Shown here: in pieces, positions 6,469 to 44,494 of the stretch
Position numbering within the stretch: position 1 is the first letter of the stretch
Layout of the letters: each line of letters begins with the position of its first letter
NCBI GenBank assembly: GCA_964645705.1
Contig: CAZYAB010000002.1
Span: 88,155-152,154, forward strand
Length of the DNA: 64,000 nucleotides
Source: an uncultured Methanosarcinales archaeon
GTDB taxonomy: Archaea; Nanobdellota; Nanobdellia; Woesearchaeales; CAXGTL01
Reading direction: 5' to 3'
Position numbers and translations under genes: made by a program
Notes under the pieces: model-generated
The model's database searches: none
What the model saw: only the letters and a program-made list of their open reading frames with translations
What the model was told of the DNA's origin: nothing

Positions 6469-6487
6469 AGAACAAGGAGGATTAAAA

Positions 6488-17636: not shown

Positions 17637-18348
17637 ACAGCATGAAATATTAATAATAGAAGATAGAGGAGAATACATAAAAGCAGCTGAAAAAGCAGCA
17701 GACCAGCTAGACATTGAAATAGTTGTATGTAGAGATTATGCTCAAGCATTAGAAGAGATTAAGATAAGACCATCAGGAATATTAACAGACATATTCTTTT
17801 TAGAAGAATTTGGCACTAATAAAAAAGACAAAGCATATGAAGTAATTGATAAGATAAAACAAGCAGTATCACACGACATAGACATAATGGGGGTTGCAAG
17901 ATATAAAGCAAGAACTGTTTATAATGCAGTCACAAAAGTTGCTGATTTATTTGGTGGAGATGTTGACTTTGTTCTTGATCAATTGCCTAATCCTGTTTTT
18001 AGCAACAGAATGAATTTAGAACAAGCACTTGTACCTGAGAAAACAAAACGTCAACGAGAATCATTAAAAGCAATTCAATCACAGCTTGATGAACAACAAC
18101 CCTTAGGAGTATTAGTAGCAGAACAAGCAAGAGAAATGGGTATACCTTATTATCTTTTATCTTCATATAATCATCATGGTGACAAACTAAAAGGAGTTAA
18201 TGCTTATCTACAAAAAGCAAGTCTAATTGTTGATGCTGTCGAATGTAATTTTGGTGATAGAGATAAACCAGAATATTGGATAGAGATATTCAACAAAATA
18301 GCAAAAGCTGTTGATGAAAAAGAGGCAATATTATACAGAAGAAGATGA
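17629..18348 (+). CDS. degenerate receiver-like domain protein ('ILIIEDRGE...ILTDIFF'). Overlaps the preceding gene by 8 nt
   Basis: REC-like spacing, but the first acidic pair is ED and the surrounding motifs are divergent. Confidence 0.4.
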   Translation: MNRQHEILIIEDRGEYIKAAEKAADQLDIEIVVCRDYAQALEEIKIRPSGILTDIFFLEEFGTNKKDKAYEVIDKIKQAVSHDIDIMGVARYKARTVYNAVTKVADLFGGDVDFVLDQLPNPVFSNRMNLEQALVPEKTKRQRESLKAIQSQLDEQQPLGVLVAEQAREMGIPYYLLSSYNHHGDKLKGVNAYLQKASLIVDAVECNFGDRDKPEYWIEIFNKIAKAVDEKEAILYRRR

Positions 18349-19642: not shown

Positions 19643-20302
19643 ATGAAAACAATAGGAAAAATTGCAACAATAGGAGCATTAGTAACTAGTTTACTATGTG
19701 CAGCACCAAGAACAGAAGCAGAAGAAATCATAAGTTTCACTGTTGAAGGTGAAAAACAAGAAAGACAAGTTGATCTAGAAACAATAGATGAAAAAATCAA
19801 TGAATTACAAGAAAAGTATGCACAAGCTTCAACACAAGAAGAGAAAAAATTCTATGAAAAAGAATTAGAAATATATAAAGGTATTAAAGGAATAGGGGCT
19901 GTGATGAGAGGATTAGGAGAAATCTTTGGTACAGTTGCCCAAGTTGTAGTAGGAGTTGCAGGAACAGAACAAGATCCAAATGTTTCTGTAAAAAGACAAC
20001 AACAAACATATCAAACAGAGCTTAAATTACTAGCATCACAATATCTTGATCAATTACTTAATGTTACAAATAGAAAAAAAGCAAAGAACTTGATATCAAT
20101 GTATGGACATAATTTTCAACAAGAAGCACAACAAAGTACAGGATTAGGAAGCGAAGTATTACCAAGTAATTGTGATTTTAGACCTGGAAGAATAAGAAAA
20201 GCAATGGAATATCTTGTTAATGAAGTACAAAGAAGATATTCACAAGAAGAAATTGATGATTTAAAAGATTCAAACCCAGGAATACAAGCATTATATGAAT
20301 AA
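19643..20302 (+). CDS. secreted coiled-coil protein (signal peptide 'MKTIGKIATIGALVTSLLCAAPRTEA'). The C-terminal 'NPGIQALYE' motif is shared with 25409-26128
   Basis: Signal-peptide-like N-terminus. Paralog further along the window. Confidence 0.45.
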   Translation: MKTIGKIATIGALVTSLLCAAPRTEAEEIISFTVEGEKQERQVDLETIDEKINELQEKYAQASTQEEKKFYEKELEIYKGIKGIGAVMRGLGEIFGTVAQVVVGVAGTEQDPNVSVKRQQQTYQTELKLLASQYLDQLLNVTNRKKAKNLISMYGHNFQQEAQQSTGLGSEVLPSNCDFRPGRIRKAMEYLVNEVQRRYSQEEIDDLKDSNPGIQALYE

Positions 20303-20527: not shown

Positions 20528-22747
20528 ATGAATACAACTTCAGAACAAAAATCCTCAACATCTCATCTTGAAGGATTTTTAAGAAAAATAGATCAACTTA
20601 GTATTTTACAAACTCCTGCTAATGAACTTAGAGATTATGATCCTGAACTTGAAGAAACTAATGAAGACTTGCTTAGACAAGAAGCATCTGAATTAGAAAG
20701 AAAAGTATCTGAATTATTAGAACTTGAACCTAATTCTAAAGATATTGCAACATATATTATAAAAAATGGTCTAGATCCAGAATTATTCATGGATTTGATT
20801 GAACAAAAATATACTGATTTTAAAACATTAAAAGGGGGTAATAGCAGGTCTTGTTTTGAAGCAAAATGGGGTGCTCATGAATTAGTTTTCAAATTTGATG
20901 TTTTGCATGATTATGATAATGATGATAATAGGGGCGGAACAAACATAGATGAAATAGAAGCATTATTACACTTGCCCGATCCAGAATTACATAACATAGT
21001 TGAGATGAAGGGTTTTATTGATCTAACAAAATATAATGGAAAAGGTTATTTAACTATTGAAAAAAAGTTTGATGGTGTTTCTTTATTTGATTATGTTCAA
21101 GAACATGGACCACTATCTGCAAAACAATTTGAACAATTAGTTCCAGAAGTTTTAAAAGCACTTAGTCATTCATATGCAAAAGAATACAAAGGCAGACCAA
21201 AACCACAGATTCTTCACAGAGATTTTCATGCAGGAAACATACTTATAAAGTGTGAGTATAATGAAAACATAAATCCAATTTTTCGTGATGAAAGTGTACT
21301 TTGGGTTCGTGGTAGTGAAGACATAAAAGAAGTTAGAATAACAGATTTTGCAACAGCTTCAAAAAGCGAAGATTTAGAATCTAAGACAGAACAAAGCGTT
21401 ACAATACATGCTTTATCAATACAAGATCCATTATTAAGTTATACTTTTACAAGAAAAGAAACAAAATATTCCCCAGCTTCACAACTTTATGAACTAGGTG
21501 TTGATCTTTATTATTCTTTGACAAAAAGATCAATATTTACATTTAATTCAAAACAAAAGATTGCAGAAGTTAAAAAGACTGGTGAAAGTTTATTGAACGA
21601 AGACGGAACATTGAACATAGATCTTTATGAAAAAGCATTAGATAATGCTTTAGACAAACTTCCAGATGAAGTAAAAGCATATAAAGATATATTATTTAAT
21701 CTTTTAAGCTTAAAACAAAGAGTAGATGATCCAGAAATAAACCCTAATTATGATTCTGAAAATCCTTTTGATGATTTAATTGAAGATTTTAAACAAACAA
21801 AACAACTCAATTATGATGCTAATCTTGCTAAAATTAGAGAAAAGGCAGAAAAGGATAAATTAGAGTTAGAAAATATAACAAAACCAATATATGAAAAACA
21901 ACCTTTTTACAAAAGATTATTAGGAAATAAGTTTGCACTTGCAACTGGCGCGCTTGGTTTGATAGGATTGTTAGTGTTTGGAAGAGGCATGTATGCTGGT
22001 AAAGAAACAAAAGTTTTTGAACATCCGCCAATTGCAGCACAAACAGAAAAACAACCAGAAGAACAACAAGAAGAAAACATGCCAATTGCCGAACAACCAG
22101 CACAACCAGAAGAAAACATAATACCAGAACAAATAAGAGAACCAGAACAAGAAAATAAAAAACCACAAATGAATACACAAAAATTAAGTCTTGAAAACAA
22201 GATTCAAAATGGTGCTTATGTTGATGTTAATAATGGTGATTGGAGATATGTAAAGAGTTATTTTGATTATGATTTGCAAACTAATTTAAATAAGCATCAA
22301 CACAAATCTAATGGTACTATAATTGATGTCACTGATCTTAATATTGTGAAAGATACTTTTATTCCAACAGCAGTTAATGAGATTAAAAACAATGCTTATG
22401 TTGATGTTAAGAATAGTGATTGGAAATATGTAAAGAGTTATTTTGATTATGATTTGCAAACTAATTTAAATAAGCATCAACACAAATCTAATGGTACTAT
22501 AATTGATGTCACTGATCTTAATATTGTGAAAGATACTTTTATTCCAACAGGAGTTAATGAGATTAAAGAGCACGCATATATTGATACTAAGAATGGTGAT
22601 TGGAAACCTGTAAAGAATTATTTTGATTATGATTTTAATACTCATTTATACAAGTATCAGCACAAAGAAAATGGTTCTATAATTGAAGTTACTGATCTTA
22701 ATATTGTGAAAAGATTTACAATACCAACTAATGTAACTGCAAACTAA
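20528..22747 (+). CDS. membrane-anchored Hanks-type (eukaryotic-like) protein kinase domain protein. It has an N-terminal kinase, one TM helix, a P/E/Q-rich linker and three tandem ~60-aa C-terminal repeats
   Basis: 'ILHRDFHAGNILIK' (catalytic loop HRD...N), 'ITDFATAS' (DFG-like), Gly-rich 'LKGGNSRSCFEA', 'VFKF'. The TM helix is 'FALATGALGLIGLLVFG'. Confidence 0.6.
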   Translation: MNTTSEQKSSTSHLEGFLRKIDQLSILQTPANELRDYDPELEETNEDLLRQEASELERKVSELLELEPNSKDIATYIIKNGLDPELFMDLIEQKYTDFKTLKGGNSRSCFEAKWGAHELVFKFDVLHDYDNDDNRGGTNIDEIEALLHLPDPELHNIVEMKGFIDLTKYNGKGYLTIEKKFDGVSLFDYVQEHGPLSAKQFEQLVPEVLKALSHSYAKEYKGRPKPQILHRDFHAGNILIKCEYNENINPIFRDESVLWVRGSEDIKEVRITDFATASKSEDLESKTEQSVTIHALSIQDPLLSYTFTRKETKYSPASQLYELGVDLYYSLTKRSIFTFNSKQKIAEVKKTGESLLNEDGTLNIDLYEKALDNALDKLPDEVKAYKDILFNLLSLKQRVDDPEINPNYDSENPFDDLIEDFKQTKQLNYDANLAKIREKAEKDKLELENITKPIYEKQPFYKRLLGNKFALATGALGLIGLLVFGRGMYAGKETKVFEHPPIAAQTEKQPEEQQEENMPIAEQPAQPEENIIPEQIREPEQENKKPQMNTQKLSLENKIQNGAYVDVNNGDWRYVKSYFDYDLQTNLNKHQHKSNGTIIDVTDLNIVKDTFIPTAVNEIKNNAYVDVKNSDWKYVKSYFDYDLQTNLNKHQHKSNGTIIDVTDLNIVKDTFIPTGVNEIKEHAYIDTKNGDWKPVKNYFDYDFNTHLYKYQHKENGSIIEVTDLNIVKRFTIPTNVTAN
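22201..22740 (+). repeat. 3 x 180-bp direct tandem repeat inside the kinase gene (copies 1 and 2 near-identical, copy 3 diverged)
   Basis: Lines 22261-22320 and 22441-22500 are identical. The period is exactly 180 nt. Confidence 0.85.
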
Positions 22748-23661
22748 CTCTTAATTATACCAATCAATGCACTGCTGCAATGATAAAACATTCTTATTGT
22801 ATTAATTAAATAATGAATTACAGGTTTTTCATTGTCTTTTTTAGAATCAAGGCTTTTTATGCCAAACTTGAATGCATAAGTAGTCTCAATGTTATGTATG
22901 TCTTTAACAATATTCAAATCTTTTGTAACATAAAGTGAATGTAATTTATCTAATTGTTCTTTAGAAGCTTTTAATAGTTTTCTGATGTCTGAATTCATTT
23001 TTATCTTGTTTCTATAAACATGATCATTAAGAAAACCAAGATTTCTTACTGCGAGTGTTATGTTTGATAAGAATAACCAATAAATAGGTGCAAGTTTAGT
23101 AGAAAATAGACCTTTTGAAATACATCTTCTTAAGAAATTAGCATATTTATGAACACTTATTGCAAGTTCTTCTGCTTCTTTGAATTCTTGTCTTTTCCTT
23201 TTTGTGATATTGGTTTCTAATATTCTTATTATTTCTTTTAAAATAAAGAATTCTTTGTTAATTATAGTATTAAAATTCTCAATACTTGGCTCTGTTATTG
23301 ATTCTATAACGCAATCTTTGTCAGATCTTGATTTTATGTCAAAACCTATGATTCCTGTTTCAACTGTTTTTTTGATTGTTTTTAGTGCTTTTTTATCTTC
23401 AAATTTAATAGTAATTTTGTCATATCCTTGCCTGTAAAGGTTGACAATCACTCTTCGTATGATGCTCTGTTCTGATATTGGCAATTTAACTGTTGTTTCT
23501 AATCTTTGTTTTTTTTTCTTTGACTCAATCACTAGTTTATTATTCTCTTCATCGACGTCAACTTCGTCTCCTGCTTTTAATCCAATCTTATTAATCCACT
23601 TCTTAGGAACATAGATTGTCAAGCCACCGCCTCCGCCTTGCTTGATCAATTTTCTTTTCAT
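22744..23661 (-). CDS. AbrB-PhoU type regulator paralog 3
   Basis: N-terminus 'MKRKLIKQGGGGGLTIYVPKKWINKIGLKAGDEVDV'. Collinear with 1279-2211. Confidence 0.5.
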   Translation of the reverse strand: MKRKLIKQGGGGGLTIYVPKKWINKIGLKAGDEVDVDEENNKLVIESKKKKQRLETTVKLPISEQSIIRRVIVNLYRQGYDKITIKFEDKKALKTIKKTVETGIIGFDIKSRSDKDCVIESITEPSIENFNTIINKEFFILKEIIRILETNITKRKRQEFKEAEELAISVHKYANFLRRCISKGLFSTKLAPIYWLFLSNITLAVRNLGFLNDHVYRNKIKMNSDIRKLLKASKEQLDKLHSLYVTKDLNIVKDIHNIETTYAFKFGIKSLDSKKDNEKPVIHYLINTIRMFYHCSSALIGIIKS

Positions 23662-23830
23662 ATCCTATGGTATATCTTGCTTATTTATATACTTTTCGGT
23701 TATCATATTCATCATATCTTTCATATCAGTAGGATATTAATAATTGTTTTACTATCCTTACTAAATATAACCATAAAAAAGAGTTCTCAGAATAACCCCA
23801 AACAATCACAAAAAAAGAGGGTGATGGTAG

Positions 23831-24055
23831 ATGGAGATGATGACTATGTCAAGATACAAAACAAAACATACAGGCATGAAAACAATAATACTGTCTGCAA
23901 TAGGGGCATATGCACTAACTAAATTTATGTGTCCTGATTTTGATATCCTTCCTGATTTTAATTATGATAAATCAACAGAAGTGTATCAAACAAGACAAGC
24001 ACAAGAATTCCAACATCCTGTGATTGGAATCACAACTGAGCATAATAGAGGTTAA
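23831..24055 (+). CDS. small membrane protein (74 aa). First gene of a long co-directional array
   Basis: ORF containing a hydrophobic helix 'IILSAIGAYALTKFM'. Confidence 0.3.
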   Translation: MEMMTMSRYKTKHTGMKTIILSAIGAYALTKFMCPDFDILPDFNYDKSTEVYQTRQAQEFQHPVIGITTEHNRG

Positions 24056-24059
24056 TAAA

Positions 24060-24953
24060 ATGAATAATAAAAATAAACTAACTTTAGGAGCAATTTTATT
24101 AGGATCAATGTATTTTTTAAATCCTTTTTCAACACCTGTTAGAGCCCAGGAATTACATATGAATGGCGAATATTCTGGAGAAAAAGTAACAATACAACAA
24201 CCACAAGTACCAAAAACACAACAATCAGTAGATAATGTTATTGAAAGAACAGAAGCAATAAAAGAATATAATCGAATGAATGATTTATTCCAATCTCATG
24301 TATTTGGTGATGGCTATACAAAAGAGAATCCTGCTTGGGGTTCTATTTATGAAAGATTGCACACTGCTGTGAAAAGAAAACGTAAGCAAGATGATCTTGA
24401 TTATAAAGTAGATGGTAATACAAGTCAAAATGATTTGAATTTTTTGGTTGACCACATGGATGATGATATAAGTAATTTTAATTTGGATAAAATAAAAAAT
24501 AGAACAAGAATGTTCAAACTTGCTTATGTAGTAAGAGATAAGACAGAGTTTAACAAAGAACTAAACAAATATCGCAAAGCTGTTAATTTTTTCAAACTAA
24601 ATCTTTATGGAAATGGTTGCGAAGAGTTTCCTGGTTTTGGTTCTATTGCTGAAAGATATTTAAGACTTAGATCAGAAGGAAACTTGCTAAGATATGGAAT
24701 TGTTCTAAATAATCATGAATTTAGATTTTTGATAGATCACAAAGATGATAATGCTAATCATCTTGGCATAAGAGAAATTCAAAAAAGAACAGACTTGTAT
24801 GAAGAAGCAAATGTAATCAAACACAAAAACAAGTCTGAAAGAAACAAAGAAAGAATTAAGAACGGCTTGAAAGAAGCAGGTGACAAAGTAAAAAAGATTG
24901 CACCTGTGTATAAAGACCTAAAAAAAGCAAAAGAGATTACAGGCGGACTTTAA
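24060..24953 (+). CDS. secreted protein with an internal two-fold duplication (signal peptide 'MNNKNKLTLGAILLGSMYFLNPFSTPVRAQE')
   Basis: The repeats 'FGDGYTKENPAWGSIYERL' and 'YGNGCEEFPGFGSIAERYL' are followed by 'FLVDHMDDD' and 'FLIDHKDDN'. Confidence 0.45.
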   Translation: MNNKNKLTLGAILLGSMYFLNPFSTPVRAQELHMNGEYSGEKVTIQQPQVPKTQQSVDNVIERTEAIKEYNRMNDLFQSHVFGDGYTKENPAWGSIYERLHTAVKRKRKQDDLDYKVDGNTSQNDLNFLVDHMDDDISNFNLDKIKNRTRMFKLAYVVRDKTEFNKELNKYRKAVNFFKLNLYGNGCEEFPGFGSIAERYLRLRSEGNLLRYGIVLNNHEFRFLIDHKDDNANHLGIREIQKRTDLYEEANVIKHKNKSERNKERIKNGLKEAGDKVKKIAPVYKDLKKAKEITGGL

Positions 24954-24965
24954 GAGGTTAAGAAA

Positions 24966-25412
24966 ATGAATGAACTAGAAAAAATAATGTCAAAACATAA
25001 AGAACCTGAACAATCACAACAAACGCAAGAATCTCTATACAAACCAAAATTTGATGCGTTTGGTATTATGGCAGTAGGTCTTGCATCAACATTATTAACA
25101 ATCTTTGGGCTTTGCATTGGAATTGAAATGTATGAAACAAAAAGATTTAACAGAGAAACACCTATCAATGATTCTCTTTGGGATCTGAGGTTTGCACGAG
25201 CAGATGACAGCTATGATTTAGTTAATACGTATATGAATAGAGATTCAGGTGAAATTATTTATATTAATGAGTCTCAGAGAATAGTTTCTTCTGATGCTCC
25301 AGAAGGTGTAAAAAACAGTACCAAGGGCAGATATGTTTCTAAAGAAGAATTGTACAATGATTGGCAATATGTTGGTCAAGAAAAACAAACTAAGGAGAGT
25401 GAAACAAAATGA
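24966..25412 (+). CDS. membrane-anchored protein (N-terminal TM). Paralog of 26130-26843
   Basis: TM helix 'FGIMAVGLASTLLTIFGLCIGI'. Shares 'YINESQRIV' and 'YNDWQYVG' motifs with 26130. Confidence 0.4.
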   Translation: MNELEKIMSKHKEPEQSQQTQESLYKPKFDAFGIMAVGLASTLLTIFGLCIGIEMYETKRFNRETPINDSLWDLRFARADDSYDLVNTYMNRDSGEIIYINESQRIVSSDAPEGVKNSTKGRYVSKEELYNDWQYVGQEKQTKESETK

Positions 25413-26128
25413 GTTTAACAAAAATATTAACAACAACAGCATTAGTAGGAGGTATGATGTTTAACTATTTAGTTAAACCAGTTTTGGCAATTAACAATAA
25501 AGCAAAACAAGCACAAGAAACTGTAATTGATTATAATGCTGAATTAAAAAGATTAGATGAATTATATGAAAAAGCAACAACAGATGATCAAAGATCTAAG
25601 ATAGATGAACTAAGAACAAGATATCAAAGCATTAAATCATTAAATGAAGAACTTAGTGAATTAGAAACATCAATAAGCACAGACACACAAGAAACACTAG
25701 CAACACAAGCAGAAATATTGCCACAAGAAGCAGGACAATTAGATGAAATTACAACAAACGACATACCTCATTATGAAGTTCCTGTGCATAATCTAGCACA
25801 TCATTATTTAAAACAAATAATGAATATACCAGAACAACCTCTTGCAACATCACCAAGTCATAATTTCTATTTAAAAAGAAATGTTGCAGACATGCTCATT
25901 GCATCATATGCATGCGAGCTACAGCACGGAAAAAATGTAGAAAAAGATGGAGACACAATTATTGTCAGAATGAGAGGACATGTTTCTGGAAATTATATTC
26001 AAAAAGCAAGACGTAAGCTAAAGCAAGCAGTAGAATCAATCTACACACTTGAACAAATACAAGATCTTGCAAATGCAAACCCGGGAATTAGTACACTATA
26101 TCCTGGAACATTTATAGGAGGCGAATAA
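25409..26128 (+). CDS. secreted coiled-coil protein. Paralog of 19643-20302 (C-terminal 'NPGISTLYPG')
   Basis: Signal peptide. Shared C-terminal motif block. Confidence 0.45.
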   Translation: MSLTKILTTTALVGGMMFNYLVKPVLAINNKAKQAQETVIDYNAELKRLDELYEKATTDDQRSKIDELRTRYQSIKSLNEELSELETSISTDTQETLATQAEILPQEAGQLDEITTNDIPHYEVPVHNLAHHYLKQIMNIPEQPLATSPSHNFYLKRNVADMLIASYACELQHGKNVEKDGDTIIVRMRGHVSGNYIQKARRKLKQAVESIYTLEQIQDLANANPGISTLYPGTFIGGE

Positions 26129-26129
26129 A

Positions 26130-26843
26130 ATGGTTGAAAATTTACAAGATAGAATTCAAGAAAATATAGAAAGAAGAAGAATAAATTATAATGGAACTAG
26201 TGGTCCTAAAAGAGCATTAATGCTTTTTGTTATTGCAGCGCTTGGATACGGAGCATACTATACTTATGGATTGTTTTCAGATGATAAAGATGTTCCTTAT
26301 GAAAAACAAGCAAAACAAATTGTTAGAGAATATATGCCAGAATTAGAAAAAGGACAAGAATATTTCCCTGGCTCTGTTCCAATTGATTCAGAAGGTGTTG
26401 AAGAAAAAACAAAACCTTTTGAAAAATATATCTATAACCCTGATAAAGATCCACAGCCTACAACCACAGAACAAGAACCAGAACAGCAACCAGAACAAGA
26501 AGATAACGGAAGACTTTACATGAATGAATCAACAGGAGAATTAATTCGTATTAATGACAGAGGAATAATTCTTTCATATGACAAACCAGCGGCTGTGAAT
26601 GAATTAGTAGAAGGTGCTTATGTATATGAAAATACTTTGTATAATGAATGGAATGATTTAGGAAAAGGCGAAGAATCAGGAAATTATTATTTCCAAAATC
26701 CAACAACAGGCACTATAATTTCTATTAACAAATATTTCAGAATACAGTCAGTTGAACAACCAAAACAATCAGATGAATTAGAACCAGGTGTTTACATTCA
26801 TGAAAACACTTTGATGAATGAATGGAATCATGTTGAAGAATGA
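26130..26843 (+). CDS. membrane-anchored protein with repeated 'Y.(H/Y)EN(T)L(Y/M)NEWN' modules
   Basis: N-terminal TM. Three internal repeats. Confidence 0.4.
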   Translation: MVENLQDRIQENIERRRINYNGTSGPKRALMLFVIAALGYGAYYTYGLFSDDKDVPYEKQAKQIVREYMPELEKGQEYFPGSVPIDSEGVEEKTKPFEKYIYNPDKDPQPTTTEQEPEQQPEQEDNGRLYMNESTGELIRINDRGIILSYDKPAAVNELVEGAYVYENTLYNEWNDLGKGEESGNYYFQNPTTGTIISINKYFRIQSVEQPKQSDELEPGVYIHENTLMNEWNHVEE

Positions 26844-27598
26844 CGGTGAATAAAATGAATAAGTTAGTAAAAAATATAGGAAAAGGATTGGGTCTTACAA
26901 TACTTGCAAGCATGTTATTTGTAAACCCTGTAAATGCACAAGAGAACCAAGTAAAAGATCAGAAACATCAAAAACCAAGCATAAGTTATTTGAATTTTTA
27001 TTCAACAGATTGCACTCCTTTGTCACGCGGAAAATCAGGTGAAGAATCAGTACTTATGTTAGGAATTGGAGATGATGAATATATGATCGCAGACAGAAAT
27101 AGTAATGATAAACCTGATTTTGCAGACGTAACTGAAAACAGAGTAAGATATGAATTATCAACAGAATCTATTGTAGACAGGTTTTATGGTAATTTTTATA
27201 GAAGAATTGTAAATGGTTTAGTAAAAAATTATTGTAATAAACTTAGAGAGATAATAGAGGGAGAAGTACAGCCGAAAGTTTTTAATCTCTTTTTAGAAAA
27301 AGAAAAACAAGATTCTGATGAATCAAGGGAAGTTGCTAATCTTTATGCAATTGGCCCTGATAATGTTTTGTATGCCTTCAGAATGTATAAAGATGATTTT
27401 ACCCTCCTGGATTTCGATCTTCAAGACAGAGATAGAAATGTTAACATAAAAATTAAGAACAATTTTCCTGAAAAAGTTCAAGAGATGCTCAGTGATGTAT
27501 TTACTTCATTAACTGATTCTTGTACAGAACTTAATGAAACAGTTAATGAGTACAGTAAAAAAAGACAAGAAGAGATCTTGAATCAATTAGGTTATTAG
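26840..27598 (+). CDS. secreted hypothetical protein (signal peptide 'ILASMLFVNPVNAQE')
   Basis: ORF overlapping the previous gene by 4 nt. Confidence 0.45.
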   Translation: MTVNKMNKLVKNIGKGLGLTILASMLFVNPVNAQENQVKDQKHQKPSISYLNFYSTDCTPLSRGKSGEESVLMLGIGDDEYMIADRNSNDKPDFADVTENRVRYELSTESIVDRFYGNFYRRIVNGLVKNYCNKLREIIEGEVQPKVFNLFLEKEKQDSDESREVANLYAIGPDNVLYAFRMYKDDFTLLDFDLQDRDRNVNIKIKNNFPEKVQEMLSDVFTSLTDSCTELNETVNEYSKKRQEEILNQLGY

Positions 27599-27868
27599 GT
27601 GGATAAACAAATGTTTGAAAAAAAACCACAACAATATGGAGTAGTAATGCTTAGTAAAGATCAAGACATTAGTTATAAGATTTCACAGATCTTTAATGAT
27701 AATAATGGACAAGTAGATTTGCGCGTCATGTGTCAAGAACTGTTATTGAGATTTAATTTTCTTCCAATGAGATTTGTCTCTGCTGACAAAGAAAAAAAGA
27801 TTTCAAATTACAGAGAATTAGGTCTTTCTCTTTACCCAATAATTGATAATATAATCTATGAAAAATGA
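27599..27868 (+). CDS. small hypothetical protein
   Basis: ORF with tight coupling on both sides. Confidence 0.35.
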   Translation: MDKQMFEKKPQQYGVVMLSKDQDISYKISQIFNDNNGQVDLRVMCQELLLRFNFLPMRFVSADKEKKISNYRELGLSLYPIIDNIIYEK

Positions 27869-29754
27869 AATATAAAAAAACATTAGGAACTGTAATGTCA
27901 TTGATAACTGCGCCTTTTTTATATTTTGCACAGCCTGCTAATGCAGAAACATTTTCACAAAGAGTTGCGAGAGAACAGAGAGAGTTTACAGAACAAACAC
28001 TAAAACAACAAAAAGAGTTCCAAGAACAAGTAAAAAAAGAGCAAAAAGAATTTGATGAATACATAAGACAAAGCAATATCCAATTCAGACAAGAACTTGA
28101 AAAAACAAGAATACAGTTTAATCAAAGAGTAAATAATTTCCACAATAATTCTCAAGATGAGATTTCTGATTTAGAAGAAAGAATTGCGCCTGTTAAAAGA
28201 CATTGGAATATAGTTCCAAGAAAAAGAATAATGCCAAGAAATAGAATAACAAGAAGAAGAAAAAGGGAAACTCAAGACAGTCATAAACTAAGACAAGAAT
28301 TCAATAAATTCAAAAAATCATTAGACACAATAGTTGACAATGATGTAAGACCTTTATTTTCTAACGAAGAAGCTTATCAATTTTTTAGATTGTCAAAGGT
28401 AGATGGAAGAGAAGATAAAGTAGAATTTGCAAAAAACCTTCACAATAAGTACAGCCAAATATGGCCTGCAGCAGAACACAAAGGTTTTCCATTGTTTAAA
28501 GCAAAAGAAATAATTAACATATATAATTTGGACAATGATTTTACACAACGTGTTGATGAATTATTAAAACATAAACCAGAACAAAACCATGGTAATCCTT
28601 TTTTTCATGATGGAGAACAAATATTAAGAGCTTATTTAAACAAGATGCCAGAGAAATTCATTAATGGCTGGGGGAAATTACTCGACAGACTAAATTTTGA
28701 TTGTGAATTCTTAAACAAAGCATGGGTATCACAATTATATGCAGACAGTGATTTTGTTACAAAAGCGCTTGCACTTGAAACAGAAAAAGGTGACAAGCTT
28801 TATGATAAATATGATAAAGATGCAAAAAGTCTACTAGAACTGCATCAACTAGGTGCAACAGCAGAAACATTAGAATTTTTTTCACAGTTTAGAAATAAGA
28901 ACGATTATTTTTCATTCAGGCCAGAACATCTTACAGAAATTATGAAAAAAGGCTTTGACCTTAACAATGAATACATACAACAATTACTAGAACTAGAAAA
29001 AAGAAACAAAGGAAAACTTACATTCAGAGACTTAGAAGATGCAACAGATATAAAAAATATGAACAACCCTAATTATGTATCATCATTATATAAAATTTTT
29101 AAAGAAATAGGGATTGATTATGAACTAAGCTTATCAAAGATCAAAAGATATTGTCAATTAAATTTACCATTAAGAGAAATCTTTTTTTACGATACAAGAA
29201 AACCAAATGCATTGATTGTATTGCCAACAGCAGACCACAATGATGCTTTTTATGGAGAATCCGGAAGAAATTTTATTAAAACAATATTAAGACAATATGA
29301 TTCGCAAATTCTAATCGCAGACACAGAAAAAGACGTATATGCTGGTTTGAAGTTTGTACCAAATATTTCATTAGCATCAATATCTGGTCACGGAACAAAA
29401 ACAACACTATCATTGGGAGAAGCAGACCTAAGATTATATACTGGTTCTGGTGACGAAACAAAAACAATCGACATTTCTGATACAGAATTTGTAGAACTTT
29501 TAAAAGAAACTAATCCGTATTGTGTTTTATTTTTATGGGCATGTAGTAATGGACAAGGCAGAGAATACGAAAATAATCTTGCTAATTTTTCAGCAAAATC
29601 AGGAAGAAAAGTGATTTCTGGTGATAATGTTTCTAACATTACAGAGATAACTTCATCATATCCTTTTGATGCTGAAGTCTATTATCATGATAAAAATACT
29701 AATCAGTATACTAAGGTTACGTATAAAATACACATAGGAGGTATGGCACAATGA
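27865..29754 (+). CDS. secreted coiled-coil protein with a C-terminal caspase-like (clan CD, C14/CHAT-type) cysteine peptidase domain
   Basis: Signal peptide 'LITAPFLYFAQPANAET'. The N-terminal region is heptad-repeat rich (Q/E/K). The C-terminal region has 'ALIVLP...ISGHGTK...CVLFLWACSNGQG', matching the His/Cys dyad context ('SGHG', 'xACxSG') of caspase-fold peptidases. Confidence 0.45.
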   Translation: MKYKKTLGTVMSLITAPFLYFAQPANAETFSQRVAREQREFTEQTLKQQKEFQEQVKKEQKEFDEYIRQSNIQFRQELEKTRIQFNQRVNNFHNNSQDEISDLEERIAPVKRHWNIVPRKRIMPRNRITRRRKRETQDSHKLRQEFNKFKKSLDTIVDNDVRPLFSNEEAYQFFRLSKVDGREDKVEFAKNLHNKYSQIWPAAEHKGFPLFKAKEIINIYNLDNDFTQRVDELLKHKPEQNHGNPFFHDGEQILRAYLNKMPEKFINGWGKLLDRLNFDCEFLNKAWVSQLYADSDFVTKALALETEKGDKLYDKYDKDAKSLLELHQLGATAETLEFFSQFRNKNDYFSFRPEHLTEIMKKGFDLNNEYIQQLLELEKRNKGKLTFRDLEDATDIKNMNNPNYVSSLYKIFKEIGIDYELSLSKIKRYCQLNLPLREIFFYDTRKPNALIVLPTADHNDAFYGESGRNFIKTILRQYDSQILIADTEKDVYAGLKFVPNISLASISGHGTKTTLSLGEADLRLYTGSGDETKTIDISDTEFVELLKETNPYCVLFLWACSNGQGREYENNLANFSAKSGRKVISGDNVSNITEITSSYPFDAEVYYHDKNTNQYTKVTYKIHIGGMAQ

Positions 29755-30605
29755 CAAAAATAAGGGACACATTTCCACATCATGAATTTAAAAGACAAAT
29801 TCTTGAAAAGAAAAAACAAGAACTCTTAGATGAAGTTGGTTTAAATAATGTATCACCTATTGATACAGAATACATGCCGCCTGAAAAAGTATTAGAATAC
29901 ATCTGTTCATTGCATGAGATAAGATTGCTTAACAAAGGATATGCAAGATTAAAAAAAACAATAGAAGTATTTTCAGCTTGTGCATTGCTTCAACTAATAC
30001 CTGGTTTTATTGGTTCACCAGGATTATCATTATTACTTACTGGATTCCCGCTAGCAGTTGGATTTCATAATTATGATAATATAAAAGAATTATTATTAAG
30101 AAGACCTGCTGGCAAGGACTTTTTTTATGATTTTGATGAAAACAAGTTCATGAACAGGCCACCTTTTAATAATAAAGGAGTGGATGTTCTTCCAATAAAG
30201 AGTATTGATGAATTTAACACAAGGTATGATTTTGTATTTGTAAATGGCTTTGAAATAATTGAATATAATTTTTATGATAAGAATGATCTTATTAGACACG
30301 ATGTTCCTGATAATCTTAAACATTGTTATGACGTGTCTGAGATTTTGAAAAAAGATTATGCAGGCTTAGCTTATATGAAAGGCTGGCTAAAAAGTGATGA
30401 ATTAGAAGCAAAGATTCTTACTCATGACGAAGTTCTTTGCAGAGACTTATCAGACTATAGGCCTGGTGATGCTTTGGCATTGTTTGGTCTTTATTGTCCT
30501 GATTCACAACCTGCCATAGAAATTCTTGACATAGACTTTGCAATAATTTCTAAACTGTCATTAGATGATTGCTCTGTTTCATTAGGGTATAAGGAGGAGA
30601 AATAA
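29751..30605 (+). CDS. membrane protein (hypothetical)
   Basis: TM segment 'LLQLIPGFIGSPGLSLLLTGFPLAVGF'. Overlaps the previous gene by 4 nt. Confidence 0.4.
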   Translation: MTKIRDTFPHHEFKRQILEKKKQELLDEVGLNNVSPIDTEYMPPEKVLEYICSLHEIRLLNKGYARLKKTIEVFSACALLQLIPGFIGSPGLSLLLTGFPLAVGFHNYDNIKELLLRRPAGKDFFYDFDENKFMNRPPFNNKGVDVLPIKSIDEFNTRYDFVFVNGFEIIEYNFYDKNDLIRHDVPDNLKHCYDVSEILKKDYAGLAYMKGWLKSDELEAKILTHDEVLCRDLSDYRPGDALALFGLYCPDSQPAIEILDIDFAIISKLSLDDCSVSLGYKEEK

Positions 30606-30607
30606 AA

Positions 30608-30982
30608 ATGTTACATAGAAACCAAGAAATAATTTATAGAAGAAATGGAAAAGAATTATGCAGGCTGGTTACAGATGATTGTAAAAAAATAGATATTGCA
30701 ACACTACAATATATAAGGGATTATCAACCATTTACAGAACCAGGAAATTTCTTAACAATTCCATTTAAAAAACGTGAAAAACGATCATCAACACTAAAAA
30801 CAGTTTCAAGAAAAGAAAATGTATTAGTTTGTGGAACAGGACATTCAACATATGAAATAGAATATGTGAACATTGACCTAGAACAAATGTTGATAGATGG
30901 TGCGTTCTTTGGCGTTAATGAAGAAGGAGACGGAATTAATCCTCCTTATTTTCCATTAGATCATAAGGTGAGAAAAGAATGA
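30608..30982 (+). CDS. hypothetical protein
   Basis: ORF in the coupled array. Confidence 0.35.
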   Translation: MLHRNQEIIYRRNGKELCRLVTDDCKKIDIATLQYIRDYQPFTEPGNFLTIPFKKREKRSSTLKTVSRKENVLVCGTGHSTYEIEYVNIDLEQMLIDGAFFGVNEEGDGINPPYFPLDHKVRKE

Positions 30983-31305
30983 CACAACAAGAACTAGAAA
31001 CAATAACAAAATCAGAAGCAGATGAATTATTTTTAGATGATATTTCTTCTGATATCAAGTATTTTGGGTTTGGAAGTCTTTATGGTATTAGTGCAGGAGT
31101 TACAATGATGGTTCATTCAAGTGTAGCCCATTTTAACTCACCCAAGTACATTCCATTGTTTTCATGTGGTACTGGTGCTTTATTAATATCAATTGGGGCT
31201 CAATTAAAATTAGCCTATAACATTTTTCACAAAACAAAGTCTTACTTAGAAAATCCTGAGAATTACGTAAACATGTATTCAAAGACATTAGGTGGTGAAG
31301 AATGA
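30979..31305 (+). CDS. hypothetical membrane protein
   Basis: Hydrophobic segments. Overlaps its neighbour by 4 nt. Confidence 0.35.
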   Translation: MTQQELETITKSEADELFLDDISSDIKYFGFGSLYGISAGVTMMVHSSVAHFNSPKYIPLFSCGTGALLISIGAQLKLAYNIFHKTKSYLENPENYVNMYSKTLGGEE

Positions 31306-31553
31306 AAAAACCTTCAATCATGGACAAAGATCTGGAATTAACAATAAAATTAGAATCATCTTCACATTTTTTAGATGCAATGGCTGTTTTGACAGTTTTT
31401 CCTCTTTTTGCAGGCATTGACATGTATTGCGATGGTGCAAACCCTCAACTAGGCGCAGCTTTAGTTCTATACTCAGTAGCACAGTTAGGACTTTATCTAG
31501 CAGACGGACTATCTATTAAAAAAGGAATTTATTATCATTCGGAGGATAAATAA
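31302..31553 (+). CDS. small membrane protein
   Basis: Two hydrophobic helices. Confidence 0.35.
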   Translation: MKKPSIMDKDLELTIKLESSSHFLDAMAVLTVFPLFAGIDMYCDGANPQLGAALVLYSVAQLGLYLADGLSIKKGIYYHSEDK

Positions 31554-31554
31554 A

Positions 31555-32133
31555 ATGACAAACTTATATTTAAATTCAATAAAGAAATTTTTAGGAATCA
31601 AAGATAATAAAGATACTGAACAAAAACCAAAAACAATAGATGACATTGTTCAGATAAAAGACAAGATCTTAGAAAAATACAGACAAAGAGGCCATCAAAG
31701 AGAAACAGATGATTCTTTGATAGTCACATACACTACTAGATGTTGCCATTATACTGGTATGATGCATTCTACAGGAATGAGGCCAAGCAGAAGGTATGAG
31801 ATAAATAAAAAATCAGGAAATGTGATTGTGACACATTATATTCAGGCAGAACATTATCTTCCTCCATCTCCTGCAACATTGTTATTAATGCCTTATGAAC
31901 CTAGTTCAAGAACAGAATATACTCCTAAAGAATTTTTAAAATATTTAAGAACAAAAGACAGAAGCTTAGGTAAAAAACTAAAGATTCCATTTGAAGAAAC
32001 ATTAAAAGGCAAGATAGAGAAAAGAGAAATCGAGTTTAGGAGAATATTGAGAGAATGCAAGGAAAAAGAAGAAGAAAAGAAAGAACAAGATAAAAAGAGA
32101 AAACAACAAGATGATGAGGATATTATATTGTAG
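31555..32133 (+). CDS. hypothetical protein with a K/E-rich C-terminal tail
   Basis: ORF, coupled. Confidence 0.35.
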   Translation: MTNLYLNSIKKFLGIKDNKDTEQKPKTIDDIVQIKDKILEKYRQRGHQRETDDSLIVTYTTRCCHYTGMMHSTGMRPSRRYEINKKSGNVIVTHYIQAEHYLPPSPATLLLMPYEPSSRTEYTPKEFLKYLRTKDRSLGKKLKIPFEETLKGKIEKREIEFRRILRECKEKEEEKKEQDKKRKQQDDEDIIL

Positions 32134-32136
32134 AAA

Positions 32137-32409
32137 ATGTCAAAACACCATACAATAAAATTAGGACAGGCGTGTGAAGAGGAGATAGGACCTTATGGGC
32201 CAAAAGTCACTTTTACTTATACAGGAATGCTTCCAGGAAACACAGTATTTGATATAACTTATGGTTTGATAGGACATGTGCCAGGAAAGCTTGTACATTA
32301 TCCAGTAGGCACCAAAACTCTTGAATATGGTGATAGAAAGTTTAGGGTGATAAATGTAACACCTGAAGAATTAATTGTAGAATATTTAGGAAAGGCGGAT
32401 AAAAAATGA
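32137..32409 (+). CDS. small hypothetical protein. Paralog of 32406-32747
   Basis: 'RVINVTPEELIVEYLGK' in this ORF matches 'RVISVTPEELVLEYIKE' in the paralog. Confidence 0.4.
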   Translation: MSKHHTIKLGQACEEEIGPYGPKVTFTYTGMLPGNTVFDITYGLIGHVPGKLVHYPVGTKTLEYGDRKFRVINVTPEELIVEYLGKADKK

Positions 32410-32747
32410 CAAAACAATACATACTAAAACTAGGAGAAAACATGACAAAGTATTACAAAGAAAATAAAACATCAATGTTTAAAGAACTTATTGATATCTT
32501 CAAATCTAAACCATCTGAAAATGGAATCCAAGATCTTGTCTATTGTGGATTGTCACCAGAAGAATCTATTTTTGACTTAAACATATATCATTATTGTCAC
32601 GAATCAATGAAAGAAAGACACATTACTGTACATTATCCTGCAGATGCTAGAATAATCAAAGTAAACCTTTATTCATACAGAGTAATAAGTGTAACACCAG
32701 AAGAATTGGTTTTAGAATATATCAAGGAGGAGAAAAATAAAAAATGA
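32406..32747 (+). CDS. small hypothetical protein. Paralog of 32137-32409
   Basis: As above. Confidence 0.4.
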   Translation: MTKQYILKLGENMTKYYKENKTSMFKELIDIFKSKPSENGIQDLVYCGLSPEESIFDLNIYHYCHESMKERHITVHYPADARIIKVNLYSYRVISVTPEELVLEYIKEEKNKK

Positions 32748-33490
32748 CAAACTTCCTAACATCACAACAAACTTTAGAACAGATCTGTGATATTGAACCA
32801 TCTAAAGATCTAGGAAATGGTATTATGAAATCTGTATTAGGTTTGCCTAGTGTAACTATTTCTACAATTGCATCAAAACACCTTATTTATGAAACAATAT
32901 ACACTATAAGGAGAAATCCTATAATCTCTTCTTTATCTGATAAGATTTGTGAATGTTCTATACAGGGTATGGGTTTAGTTTTAGCAGGAGTGTTTTTTTT
33001 AGGAGGGATGTATTGTTTATTAGATGCCACTTCATCTTTTTCATCAACAATGAAAAAGCAATCAAATTCTGTGTATTATGTTAATCAAGGATATTCAAAC
33101 AAAAACAGAATATTTAACAATTTATTTTGTGAAAAAGTAAAACCTATAGAAAGTAAAGATGAATTAGAAAAATACAAGGGTTTTGTTCTACTAAATGGAG
33201 TTTATGTCAAAGATGTTAAAACAAGACATAAAAGAGAACACAGCCCAACTATTATTGGCCCTGATGGCAGGTTTGATAAATATTATACACTTTTTGACTG
33301 TGATTTTAAAGGACAAAAACTAAAAGTTGTTTCAATTGATGAGGATATGTTTATGGGAAATACTGCCAAGGATGCTGTTAAAAAATTACTTTCATTAAAA
33401 GGCTCATATGTTTATTTAGGTGGTAAGGTTCGAAATAATCAAAATATGTTATTATATTCTTTTGGAAAAGCTTTGGAAGTGGAGGAATAA
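32744..33490 (+). CDS. membrane protein (hypothetical)
   Basis: TM 'MGLVLAGVFFLGGMYCLL'. Confidence 0.35.
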   Translation: MTNFLTSQQTLEQICDIEPSKDLGNGIMKSVLGLPSVTISTIASKHLIYETIYTIRRNPIISSLSDKICECSIQGMGLVLAGVFFLGGMYCLLDATSSFSSTMKKQSNSVYYVNQGYSNKNRIFNNLFCEKVKPIESKDELEKYKGFVLLNGVYVKDVKTRHKREHSPTIIGPDGRFDKYYTLFDCDFKGQKLKVVSIDEDMFMGNTAKDAVKKLLSLKGSYVYLGGKVRNNQNMLLYSFGKALEVEE

Positions 33491-33493
33491 AAA

Positions 33494-34282
33494 ATGACAG
33501 ACAAACTAAAGACACTCGGAATACCATTATTAATAACATGCTTAAGTTGTAACACAAATACTTTAGCACAAGAAAATAAACCAAAACAAAGAACTTTCAA
33601 TGAATCTTTATGGTATGATATATTGAAGAAAGACTATACAAAAGAGCAGGCAAGAGAGATATTGTCAGATCCTGATAAGTTTCTAGCTGAATATGATAAA
33701 CATACAATTGCTGATATTACTAAAATTAAAGCAAAAGATGGATCTATTGAAAAATATGCCAGAAGAGATCCAAGAATTTCCTCAGCATGGTTAGCACGTG
33801 AATTACTTCACACAATAAAAGGAGAAAATGATTTTTTAAAAAAACTTGTTGATATGTATTTAGAATATGAAGAAAAGCACAAGCAAGATCCTGGTTATAT
33901 GGAAATTTCTGATGCATTTATCCCTTGCTGTGCAATAAGAAACATGACTCCAGGAGATGATGCTTATTTTCAGAAATTATTAGATACAAAAGATAGTTAT
34001 CATATACAATTAGAAGCATTAAATAAAATGCCAGATGAAAAAAAGATTCCATTGATAATCTCTGGTTTAGATGATTATGGCAAAAACATAAGGGTTATTG
34101 AAAAACATCCTGGTGAATTACATTATTTTGAATCATTAGAGTATTTTGTTGCAAGAGATGCCTTATTAAGTGTAAATGACATCTCTTTTTTAGAAGAAAC
34201 AGCTAACAGAAAAGATCTTGGAGAGATGGCGATTTTTTGTGCTGAAGAAAGACTTAGACAATTAAGATCAAAAGGTGAATAA
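33494..34282 (+). CDS. secreted or lipoprotein-like hypothetical protein
   Basis: N-terminus 'LGIPLLITCLSCNTNTLAQE'. Confidence 0.4.
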   Translation: MTDKLKTLGIPLLITCLSCNTNTLAQENKPKQRTFNESLWYDILKKDYTKEQAREILSDPDKFLAEYDKHTIADITKIKAKDGSIEKYARRDPRISSAWLARELLHTIKGENDFLKKLVDMYLEYEEKHKQDPGYMEISDAFIPCCAIRNMTPGDDAYFQKLLDTKDSYHIQLEALNKMPDEKKIPLIISGLDDYGKNIRVIEKHPGELHYFESLEYFVARDALLSVNDISFLEETANRKDLGEMAIFCAEERLRQLRSKGE

Positions 34283-34285
34283 AAA

Positions 34286-34522
34286 ATGACAGAACAAAAC
34301 AATATAAAAGATTATTTGAATCAGACAAAAGTTAATTTATTAAGCTATTCAGGAGCAGCAAGCTTAGGTGGAATGCTTACTTCATATGCTATGCATGAAC
34401 CAGATGCATTGATGTTGACCTCAGCTCTATTTATAGGAACAAATGTAATGAAAGGCATAGAATATCTAATAGCTTACAGCAATATGCAATCTGATCATTA
34501 TAATAATAAAACAGGTGAATAA
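34286..34522 (+). CDS. small membrane protein
   Basis: Hydrophobic ORF. Confidence 0.3.
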   Translation: MTEQNNIKDYLNQTKVNLLSYSGAASLGGMLTSYAMHEPDALMLTSALFIGTNVMKGIEYLIAYSNMQSDHYNNKTGE

Positions 34523-34525
34523 AAA

Positions 34526-34924
34526 ATGACAGACATAGACTCAATATTAAACACAATTGCACAAGTAAACCCTTTTTTAGCAGCAAATGCATGGCGAGGT
34601 GTTGTAGGTTTTGGTACTGGAATTATGATTGGAATGATTGATATGACAGTTAACAGAGCAAATAATAAAAAAACCAGATATTTTTTAGACAAAAACTCAT
34701 ACCAGCAATTAGGTTTAGCATATTTAGCAGAAGTAGGAGCAAATACTTTTATTTGTGCTGCTGGTCTTGCAGAAAAAGCAAGTGAATACATGGCTAACCA
34801 ACATTTTGCAGATGATCTAGGTGGAATACTTGGATTTATGTGCGGTTATAATCTAGTAAAAGCAGGAGACGAAATCTTAAAACAAGAAGAATCAAATTAC
34901 AGAAGAAACAATTGTAATAGATAA
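34526..34924 (+). CDS. membrane protein (hypothetical). Last gene of the array
   Basis: Gly-rich TM helices. Confidence 0.35.
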   Translation: MTDIDSILNTIAQVNPFLAANAWRGVVGFGTGIMIGMIDMTVNRANNKKTRYFLDKNSYQQLGLAYLAEVGANTFICAAGLAEKASEYMANQHFADDLGGILGFMCGYNLVKAGDEILKQEESNYRRNNCNR

Positions 34925-34926
34925 CA

Positions 34927-36852: not shown

Positions 36853-37488
36853 TTATTCTTTTAATCTTGTATCAAGTTCTTTTTCAATAACTCTTTTAAC
36901 ACCATCTTTGGTGATTGTCAATACGTCTACTCCGTTTCCAGAAGCAATGTCTCTTTGCATTGCAGCATTCACAGATTTTAATGCAAGCTTTACTCCTTCA
37001 TCAACAGTCATAGCTTCTTTATATAATGTTTCTAAAACACCAAAAGCATAAACAGATCCTGACCCAGAACATGTGAAATCTTTGTGTTCTGATAATGATC
37101 CATCAGGAAAAATATCATAAAGAGTAAATCCAGAATTATCAACACCAGCAAACAAGAAATGAGATATTCCTGGTATTGTTGAGAACTTTCTTATGTTTTG
37201 ATAAACTAGTCCTGCTAATAAGTTAGCAGTTTCTTTAACAGTAGGATCTCTATCAACTCTAATAGATTTTAGCTTTATCTCTGCCCTTACTAGTTTAACC
37301 ATGAGCTGTATATCAGAAACAGTGCCTGCTGTTGTAAGAGCCATTTTATTAGTGATTTCGTGTATTTTTTGTTCTTTTTTATGCATTACTAAGTATCCTG
37401 CCGTTGCTCTTTTATCAGCAGCTAAAACTATTCCATCTTTACATACAATTCCTATAGTTGTAGTACCAGTTTTCAGAGTTTTTTCCAT
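36853..37488 (-). CDS. psmB: proteasome beta subunit (propeptide 'MEKTLKTG' followed by catalytic Thr1 in 'TTTIGIV')
   Basis: The N-terminus is typical of the Ntn-hydrolase 20S beta subunit ('TTTIGIVCKDGIVLAADKRAT'). Confidence 0.85.
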   Translation of the reverse strand: MEKTLKTGTTTIGIVCKDGIVLAADKRATAGYLVMHKKEQKIHEITNKMALTTAGTVSDIQLMVKLVRAEIKLKSIRVDRDPTVKETANLLAGLVYQNIRKFSTIPGISHFLFAGVDNSGFTLYDIFPDGSLSEHKDFTCSGSGSVYAFGVLETLYKEAMTVDEGVKLALKSVNAAMQRDIASGNGVDVLTITKDGVKRVIEKELDTRLKE

Positions 37489-44293: not shown

Positions 44294-44494
44294 TTAGGAA
44301 GCTTCTCCACCTAATCCTTCATCAATATCATCTATTGATGATCCTACGTCTCCAACATCTTCGCCAAGATCTGAAACAATTTCAGATGCTTCTTCATCAG
44401 ATTCAATATTGCTTTGAGGAGCACATCCACTGCTCCCTGCTAATATTACTAATAAAAGCATAGTTATTATCAATAAACAAATTATTTTTCTCAT
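44294..44494 (-). CDS. small secreted acidic protein (66 aa). Overlaps the upstream giant gene by 4 nt
   Basis: Signal peptide followed by a lipobox-like 'AGSSGC'. Confidence 0.35.
   Translation of the reverse strand: MRKIICLLIITMLLLVILAGSSGCAPQSNIESDEEASEIVSDLGEDVGDVGSSIDDIDEGLGGEAS

Follow-up and report, generated by a model that had tools for sequence, protein, structure and literature searches.

The window analysed here is a stretch of 64,000 nucleotides (nt) of contig CAZYAB010000002.1 (assembly GCA_964645705.1, deposited under the name of an uncultured Methanosarcinales archaeon), and its positions 23831-34924 hold the subject of this report, an array of 19 open reading frames (ORFs; designated g01 to g19 in order), all on the plus strand. 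The 18 successive spacings were 4, 12, -4, 1, -4, 0, -4, -4, 2, -4, -4, 1, 3, -4, -4, 3, 3, and 3 nt; 16 of the 18 junctions were classed as having either a -4 nt overlap or a gap of no more than 4 nt, and the largest gap was 12 nt. These figures bear out an earlier note, made from the sequence alone, which had described about 20 co-directional and closely packed plus-strand genes at this place. Its proposal of one long operon also fits the layout, which is that of a single translationally coupled unit from which we infer a single transcript. The start of g02 was corrected from TTG 24024 to ATG 24060, in agreement with the gene call of the Joint Genome Institute (JGI; 297 amino acids, aa), and g07 possibly starts at ATG 27611, where a GGTGGA Shine-Dalgarno sequence (SD) and a product of 85 aa match the Logan gene call, the alternative being GTG 27599. 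All 19 ORFs were intact. GC contents at the three codon positions (GC1/GC2/GC3) were 0.418/0.301/0.208 in the array versus 0.432/0.301/0.185 in the 47 other genes of the window, with GC1 > GC2 > GC3 in both, and the codon usage of the array was no farther from the rest of the window than that of random gene sets (p = 0.15). Independent assemblies (from JGI 3300009405 and from two SRA runs) showed this arrangement unchanged, with 99.8-100% identity; the samples known to carry the strain are JGI 3300009405, SRR8062331, and SRR9166041. The sole strain-variable patch inside the array lies in g16 (33133-33250), and 7 of its 14 changes are synonymous, which is compatible with constraint.

A divergent, A/T-rich intergenic region of 169 nt (23662..23830) separates g01 from an AbrB-type regulator gene on the minus strand. 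It holds TATA-like boxes (TTTATATA near 23684 and AAATATAA near 23764) as well as the SD of g01 (GAGGGTGATGG), and it is the only interval in the cluster big enough for a promoter, every other gap being 12 nt or less. The promoter would therefore be placed here. Terminator-like sites within the array were not above chance (2 versus 3.5 expected in shuffled sequence).

The products are short, as the earlier note had stated, with a median length of 148 aa against 280 aa for the 47 other window genes (p = 0.0013). Their locations were predicted using simple, home-made rules for hydrophobicity and A-x-A cleavage. Canonical Sec signal peptides with A-x-A cleavage were predicted for 5 of the 19 products, namely g02 (24060..24953, 297 aa, VRA↓QE), which contains an internal duplication of about 100 aa (z = 12.7); g04 (25409..26128, 239 aa, VLA↓IN), with a coiled coil and a C-terminal NPGIxxLY motif; g06 (26840..27598, 252 aa, VNA↓QE); g08 (27865..29754, 629 aa, ANA↓ET), in which a coiled coil and helical repeats precede a C-terminal domain that is DUF4347-like with a predicted caspase fold; and g17 (33494..34282, 262 aa, TLA↓QE), a putative helical-repeat (HEAT-like) protein. 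A single N-terminal anchor was predicted for g01 (23831..24055, 74 aa, hydrophobic segment 15-34, no Pfam or PHROG match), for g03 (24966..25412, 148 aa), in which one transmembrane segment (TM, 29-57) is followed by one copy of a repeat of about 55 aa, and for g05 (26130..26843, 237 aa), in which the TM (24-45) is followed by an acidic linker and two copies of that repeat. A hydrophobic hairpin or two hydrophobic segments were predicted for g09 (29751..30605, 284 aa, hairpin 69-106 plus a C-terminal domain), g16 (32744..33490, 248 aa, hairpin 68-97 plus a C-terminal domain), g11 (30979..31305, 108 aa, two segments), g12 (31302..31553, 83 aa, two segments), g19 (34526..34924, 132 aa, two Gly-rich segments) and, weakly, g18 (34286..34522, 78 aa). 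No hydrophobic segment was found in g07 (27599..27868, 85-89 aa depending on the start, of which ATG 27611 is the likelier), g10 (30608..30982, 124 aa), g13 (31555..32133, 192 aa, basic, with a Lys/Glu-rich tail), g14 (32137..32409, 90 aa), or g15 (32406..32747, 113 aa), and these were called soluble.

Because neighbouring genes overlap at their stop and start codons or lie only a few nt apart, SDs are written in the last codons of the gene upstream. This produces junctions of the form ...GGxGAATAA-AAAATG and Gly/Glu/Lys-rich C-termini, and the upstream products therefore end in ...GGE, ...GE, ...EE, or ...KK. An SD 4-mer (from AGGAGGTGA, located at -18..-4) fell inside the end of the upstream gene for 16 of the 19 array genes versus 18 of the 47 others (Fisher p = 9e-4), and to this extent the junction logic described in the earlier note stands. 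The literal form that it had reported for many junctions, ...G(G/T)GAATAA followed by AAAATGAC, was found at only 4 junctions of the array, all within its last 2.5 kb, and at one unrelated gene start elsewhere in the window (483-498). With up to 2 mismatches allowed, the motif G[GT]GAATAAAAAATGAC occurred 5 times in the window, versus an expectation of 0.47.

Nor is this logic special to the array, since it is the generic architecture of archaeal operon interiors (PMC6728339, PMC10666635). Experiments in Haloferax and E. coli have demonstrated termination-reinitiation coupling and its steep dependence on very short spacing (PMC6728339, PMC10666635), and the layout that goes with it (unidirectional neighbours with -4/-1 overlaps or very short gaps) is that of the array. 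Like the coupled operons of Huber et al. 2019/2023 (PMC6728339, PMC10666635), the array has -4 nt overlaps (ATGA), gaps of 4 nt or less, and SDs within the upstream gene, and by analogy its junctions would be a long, clean example of a known coupling mechanism. Unlike those operons, it forms an unusually long run of 18 consecutive junctions, and it carries a recurring cassette of 16-24 nt and Met-Thr starts. A Met-Thr N-terminus was found in 9 of 19 array products versus 2 of 47 elsewhere (p = 1e-4), and the g17/g18 and g18/g19 junctions have a 24-nt cassette in common at 96% identity. These two features go beyond the generic pattern, and they would be explained most simply by junctions having been duplicated locally or subjected to gene conversion.

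None of the 19 products gave a Pfam or NCBIfam match, in keeping with the earlier statement that no member has a recognisable housekeeping function, and no meaningful match was obtained in PHROGs or among PDB sequences either. For the 10 largest products, the PADLOC defence models gave nothing beyond coiled-coil noise. With g08, g09, and g17 concatenated as the query, 1.84 billion representatives were searched exhaustively by HMMER, a search that covers 3 of the 19 members. In this search g09 matched only itself, g17 had three relatives at 34-43% identity, and the C-terminal domain of g08 (about 425-610) matched approximately 250 clusters at 30-45% identity. A word-index protein search using g08 alone had recovered only g08; because HMMER later gave the relatives, the word-index tool evidently misses homologues at this level of identity.

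The g08 domain is the best characterised part of the array. In an alignment of 40 relatives, Tyr63, Gly93-His94-Gly95, Cys145, and Pro185 (domain numbering) were invariant, and KPNA, D..F, YD, NxA, and V motifs were nearly so; the predicted catalytic dyad corresponds to His509 and Cys560 of g08. DUF4347 is an existing, uncharacterised Pfam family. It (PF14252) was matched at E < 0.01 by 27 of the 40 relatives, a few of which scored above the gathering cut-off of 24.6 bits (for example, P0032 at 32.9 bits), and two relatives carry a precomputed PF14252 assignment. g08 itself fell below every Pfam threshold and had no DUF4347 match even at E = 0.1, and the isolated domain likewise gave none. The link is thus transitive, through homologues, and the family would be a divergent branch of DUF4347.

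An AlphaFold2 model of the domain, built from the 40-sequence alignment, reached a predicted local distance difference test score (pLDDT) of 94 and a predicted template modelling score (pTM) of 0.90. Its topology is beta-alpha-beta-alpha-beta(GHG)-...-alpha-beta(SC), in which strand 86-92 is followed by G93-H94-G95 and strand 139-143 by S144-C145. The best Foldseek matches in the PDB were caspase-8, TcdA (a toxin with a protease domain of clan CD), the orthocaspase-like GSU0716, caspases 11, 2, 7, and 3, gingipain RgpB, and MALT1, at probabilities of up to 0.99; among viral models (BFVD), the named best matches were giant-virus caspases. The model places His and Cys at the ends of consecutive strands, as in the clan CD fold, at TM-scores that are low (0.3-0.43). 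The predicted Gly-His-Gly and Ser-Cys after successive strands are what is seen in the caspases (C14), gingipain (C25), clostridial toxin CPD (C80), and MALT1; the g08 domain differs from known clan CD members in being C-terminal, after a signal peptide and helical repeats, in small DPANN and, probably, bacterial proteins. The earlier mention of a caspase-like protease is therefore upheld as regards the predicted fold and the invariant His/Cys dyad. g08 is probably an extracellular cysteine peptidase or a self-processing module.

The family to which this domain belongs appears to be mostly extracytoplasmic, an N-terminal hydrophobic segment being present in 80 of the 111 members that have an N-terminal extension. 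It occurs in genomes of Nanoarchaeia, and it would span archaea and bacteria, possibly including bacteria of the Candidate Phyla Radiation (CPR). For the relatives that share more than the C-terminal domain with g08, the genomic context was bacterial in one case (P0062) and too short in two (P0007, P0012). A 599-aa relative of g08 (27% identity over 243-619) lies on a contig encoding a bacterial DnaE-type polymerase (L116, 148-3732 and 10001-11800).

Four sequences went into the g17 model, which shows stacked helical hairpins at a pLDDT of 74.7. Its best structural matches, the HEAT-like alphaRep and TOG proteins, were non-significant (E of at least 0.04, TM-score about 0.3). On this model g17 would be a helical-repeat binding protein; its modelled hairpin stack would resemble that of HEAT-like proteins (alphaRep, TOG, PBS-lyase type), and g17 differs from them in its predicted export by a signal peptide and in having no Pfam HEAT match.

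The host is a Woesearchaeote, its FttA being 65-86% identical to the FttA of 80 metagenome-assembled genomes (MAGs) labelled Woesearchaeota, Nanoarchaeota, or Nanoarchaeia, and the earlier attribution to a DPANN-like archaeon is thereby borne out. FttA was used as an anchor for comparison with these relatives, in which only the order proteasome-FttA(-ProRS) was syntenic; across the 80 FttA-anchored loci of Woesearchaeota and Nanoarchaeota, no match to any array protein was obtained (tblastn, E < 0.01). For the closest relative (86% FttA identity), the available contig of 3 kb ends inside FttA and is uninformative on the array in a sister species. Elsewhere, the g08 domain (in P0010, P0157, and 21 metagenome loci) and g17 (in P0011) have homologues that stand singly among housekeeping genes (TFIIB, GatD, LonB, LeuRS, FtsZ, and archease), and about 360 kb around these homologues contained no further array member except a marginal g14/g15-like lipoprotein (L112, 18835-19158; E = 0.014-0.007) at 9 kb from one of them. 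By these comparisons the array is not conserved as a unit. The dispersal of individually conserved genes that the earlier note had named as grounds for rejecting its proposal was found for the g08 C-terminal domain and g17, and the other members are, as far as testable, orphans. DPANN genomes are known to contain clusters of small secreted and membrane proteins in which orphans abound.

Paralogues within the array had been reported before, and two pairs were confirmed: g03/g05 (E = 1e-9, z = 15.9), of which g05 is internally duplicated in its two repeat copies, and g14/g15 (E = 2.5e-11, z = 15.5). The similarity of g09 and g16 is marginal, with about 2-3% of shuffles scoring equally well. The small membrane proteins with two segments (g11, g12, g18, and g19) were also compared, and no support was obtained for their being distant paralogues.

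Relatives of array members were identified immediately upstream as well. A membrane Ser/Thr protein kinase (20528..22747, plus strand, Pkinase) has a TM near residues 468-486 followed by three tandem 60-aa repeats, encoded by three 180-nt units at the 3' end of the gene (22200-22739). These repeats are homologous to the repeat of g03 and g05 (Smith-Waterman z = 6.1 and 6.3; 0 of 1000 shuffles reached the score), with the common motif NGxIIxV..D..I......P..VNE....AYV......W. Their number is strain-variable, the kinase being 739 aa long here versus 679 aa, or one repeat fewer, in a contig of JGI 3300009405 (L001). A secreted protein of 219 aa (19643..20302, plus strand) is a full-length paralogue of g04 (BLASTP E = 4e-8, z = 14.5) that shares the C-terminal NPGIxxLY. 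Because the kinase carries the g03/g05 repeat and 19643-20302 encodes a g04 paralogue, the boundaries drawn in the earlier note (23831 to 34924) are too narrow, and the functional neighbourhood would extend from at least 19.6 kb to 34.9 kb and include a sensor kinase of its own along with the divergent regulator of the AbrB type. The shared repeat suggests that the kinase senses a common external partner or that the kinase, g03, and g05 all bind one. Two receiver-domain-like genes (16680-18348) precede the 19.6-kb point.

Taken together, the array is best read as a native, species-restricted, translationally coupled envelope operon of a Woesearchaeote, encoding private secreted and membrane proteins, a reading to which we assign a probability of roughly 60%. 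One transcript would start in the 169-nt region shared with the divergent AbrB-type gene. As in other archaea, ribosomes would move from gene to gene by termination-reinitiation, aided by the SDs in the last upstream codons. By prediction, five products would be exported through Sec, eight or nine inserted into the membrane, and five left soluble; g08 (caspase-like fold) and g17 (helical repeat) would be the exported products with an assignable fold, and g03 and g05 would display the same repeat of about 55 aa as the presumed outer domain of the neighbouring kinase. DPANN archaea live on other cells, and the molecules at the contact sites are mostly unknown. Lineage-specific archaeal hypothetical proteins are short and rich in signal peptides and TMs, and roles in cell-cell or cell-environment contact have been proposed for them (PMC9258230). 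The array products resemble these families (Meheust et al. 2022, PMC9258230) in being short and unannotated, many with signal peptides or TMs, and differ from them in that most are confined, as far as testable, to one species-level population, whereas the published families are conserved within a phylum-level lineage. From location, lineage, and the generalisations of that study (PMC9258230), the likeliest role would lie in cell-surface remodelling or contact, perhaps with a host cell.

Several points weigh against this reading. The location calls are products of home-made heuristics, and the earlier claim that the products are mostly secreted or membrane-bound is plausible and not statistically established: under a strict criterion, which replaced a looser hydrophobicity threshold that had flagged 30 of the 47 control genes, 10 of 19 array products versus 14 of 47 other window genes qualified (p = 0.10). 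Five products look cytoplasmic and would be left unexplained by a pure surface set. The single transcript is deduced, and the host-interaction role is conjectural. For the 16 members outside the exhaustive search, the absence of relatives refers to Pfam, PHROGs, NCBIfam, PDB sequences, and about 1.4 Mb of related DPANN DNA, with PADLOC covering 8 of the 16. The sub-threshold Pfam scores of g08 and the low TM-scores of its fold matches, both given above, belong here too.

Among the alternatives, it might be proposed that the products are subunits of one heteromeric surface or membrane complex whose stoichiometry is fixed by tight coupling. The very short spacings at 16 of the 18 junctions would suit this, as would the mixture of exported, membrane, and small soluble (chaperone-like?) proteins. 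The multi-component apparatus envisaged by the earlier note finds no echo in the products, however: no hallmark of a type IV pilus, an archaellum, or another surface-filament or secretion system was matched in Pfam or NCBIfam for any of the 19, there being no ATPase, pilin, secretin, channel, or other known structural hallmark, and the signal peptides are of the Sec type with A-x-A cleavage rather than the class III expected of a pilus or archaellum. Relatives of g08 and g17 occur elsewhere alone, with no other array gene within 10 kb, members have paralogues outside the array, and a 19-part machine restricted to one species would be unusual. We consider such a complex unlikely.

It is rather improbable, in our estimate, that many of the small ORFs, whether born de novo or diverged past recognition, are young or rapidly evolving, have little or no function of their own, and are carried along in a permissive, highly expressed operon for surface proteins, a view that is compatible with the envelope operon, since both can hold. 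The finding that g09 has no relative among the representatives searched, together with the lack of a family match for any member, would be expected of such genes, and de novo candidates are known to be short and TM-rich (PMC9258230). The local duplications (g03/g05, g14/g15, the internal one of g02, and g04 with 19643) and the near-identical 24-nt cassettes at g17/g18 and g18/g19 would fit ongoing local gene birth. All 19 ORFs are nevertheless intact, follow the GC1 > GC2 > GC3 pattern of the host, and mostly have an SD, and the proportion of synonymous changes in the variable patch of g16 is compatible with constraint.

A bolder extension would take 19.6-34.9 kb as a self-contained host-contact module, in which the kinase senses a partner through the g03/g05-type repeat, signals through the receiver-domain proteins and the AbrB regulator, and switches on the coupled operon, whose products form a new surface complex with a secreted peptidase of caspase fold and a HEAT-like adaptor at its core. 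We regard this as a long shot; if true, the module would be a DPANN attachment or feeding device without counterpart among known archaeal surface structures.

Weakest of all is the idea of an integrated or domesticated mobile element (a DPANN virus or plasmid remnant) with genes too divergent to recognise: 11 kb of small, co-directional, packed orphans including small membrane proteins does recall small archaeal virus genomes, the slot downstream of FttA is non-syntenic in the 80 relatives, and in one of them a different gene occupies the space between FttA and the AbrB homologue (see below), but no integrase, replication, packaging ATPase, or capsid match was found in Pfam or PHROGs and no tRNA or flanking direct repeat at the array, IMG/VR gave no match at the DNA level and none at the protein level for g05, g16, and the g08 C-terminal domain, codon usage and GC are those of the host, the block adjoins FttA with 2 nt to spare, the g04 paralogue and the g03/g05 repeat also lie outside it, and all assemblies are occupied. 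A perfect 17-nt inverted repeat that brackets the array (23563-23579 and 34857-34873) was set aside as a coincidence; both arms are coding (in the AbrB-type regulator and g19) and both encode KAGDE.

With regard to what the putative species-restricted envelope operon adds, the useful side results are the predicted caspase fold and dyad of a widespread secreted DPANN family (about 250 clusters, probably also in small-genome bacteria) and a receptor kinase sharing its outer repeat with two co-located membrane proteins (g03/g05). The array would also provide an 18-junction example of coupling in a lineage, the DPANN archaea, in which to our knowledge coupling has never been measured. Its confinement to one population limits its general significance, and it mainly illustrates the fast turnover of envelope gene sets.

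The array is flanked by genes for FttA/aCPSF1, a proteasome beta subunit, and an archaeal-type ProRS. FttA/aCPSF1 (34927-36837, minus strand) is convergent with the array, which ends 2 nt from the FttA stop. The stop codons of g19 and FttA are thus 2 nt apart (34924-34927), which leaves the two opposing transcripts either to overlap or to end within the gene on the other strand. On the other side, the AbrB/MazE-fold (SpoVT-AbrB type) gene (22744..23661, minus strand; Pfam PF04014, E = 6e-9) is divergent from g01 and, by its position, a candidate local regulator. It is one of three paralogous AbrB-type genes within 24 kb (1279-2211, 3666-4562, and 22744-23661, all on the minus strand), whose N-termini are near-identical (MKRK.IKQG.GG.TIY.PKKWI). 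In one relative (L023, 11934-16557), the homologue of 22744-23661 sits 3.7 kb downstream of FttA, and a single acidic membrane protein of 986 aa occupies the interval where the window has the 19-gene array; this arrangement hints at a variable slot between FttA and the AbrB-type gene.

Elsewhere in the window, a PAN/Mpa-like AAA ATPase gene (6401-8047, plus strand) is followed, through 15084, by three PafA/Dop-type genes of the Pup_ligase family (8066-11116, E = 1e-137, fused to leucine-rich repeats; 11373-13472; and 13462-15084), and the proteasome beta subunit (36853-37488, minus strand) is encoded in the same archaeal window. Enzymes of pupylation have been described in Actinobacteria and in a small number of other bacteria, and a literature search found no paper connecting them with Woesearchaeota. 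The interval 4.5-8.1 kb yielded no small ORF resembling Pup. Finally, the gene at 44491-47538 (minus strand) encodes a further large orphan envelope protein, 1015 aa long, which begins with a signal peptide and has no match in Pfam.

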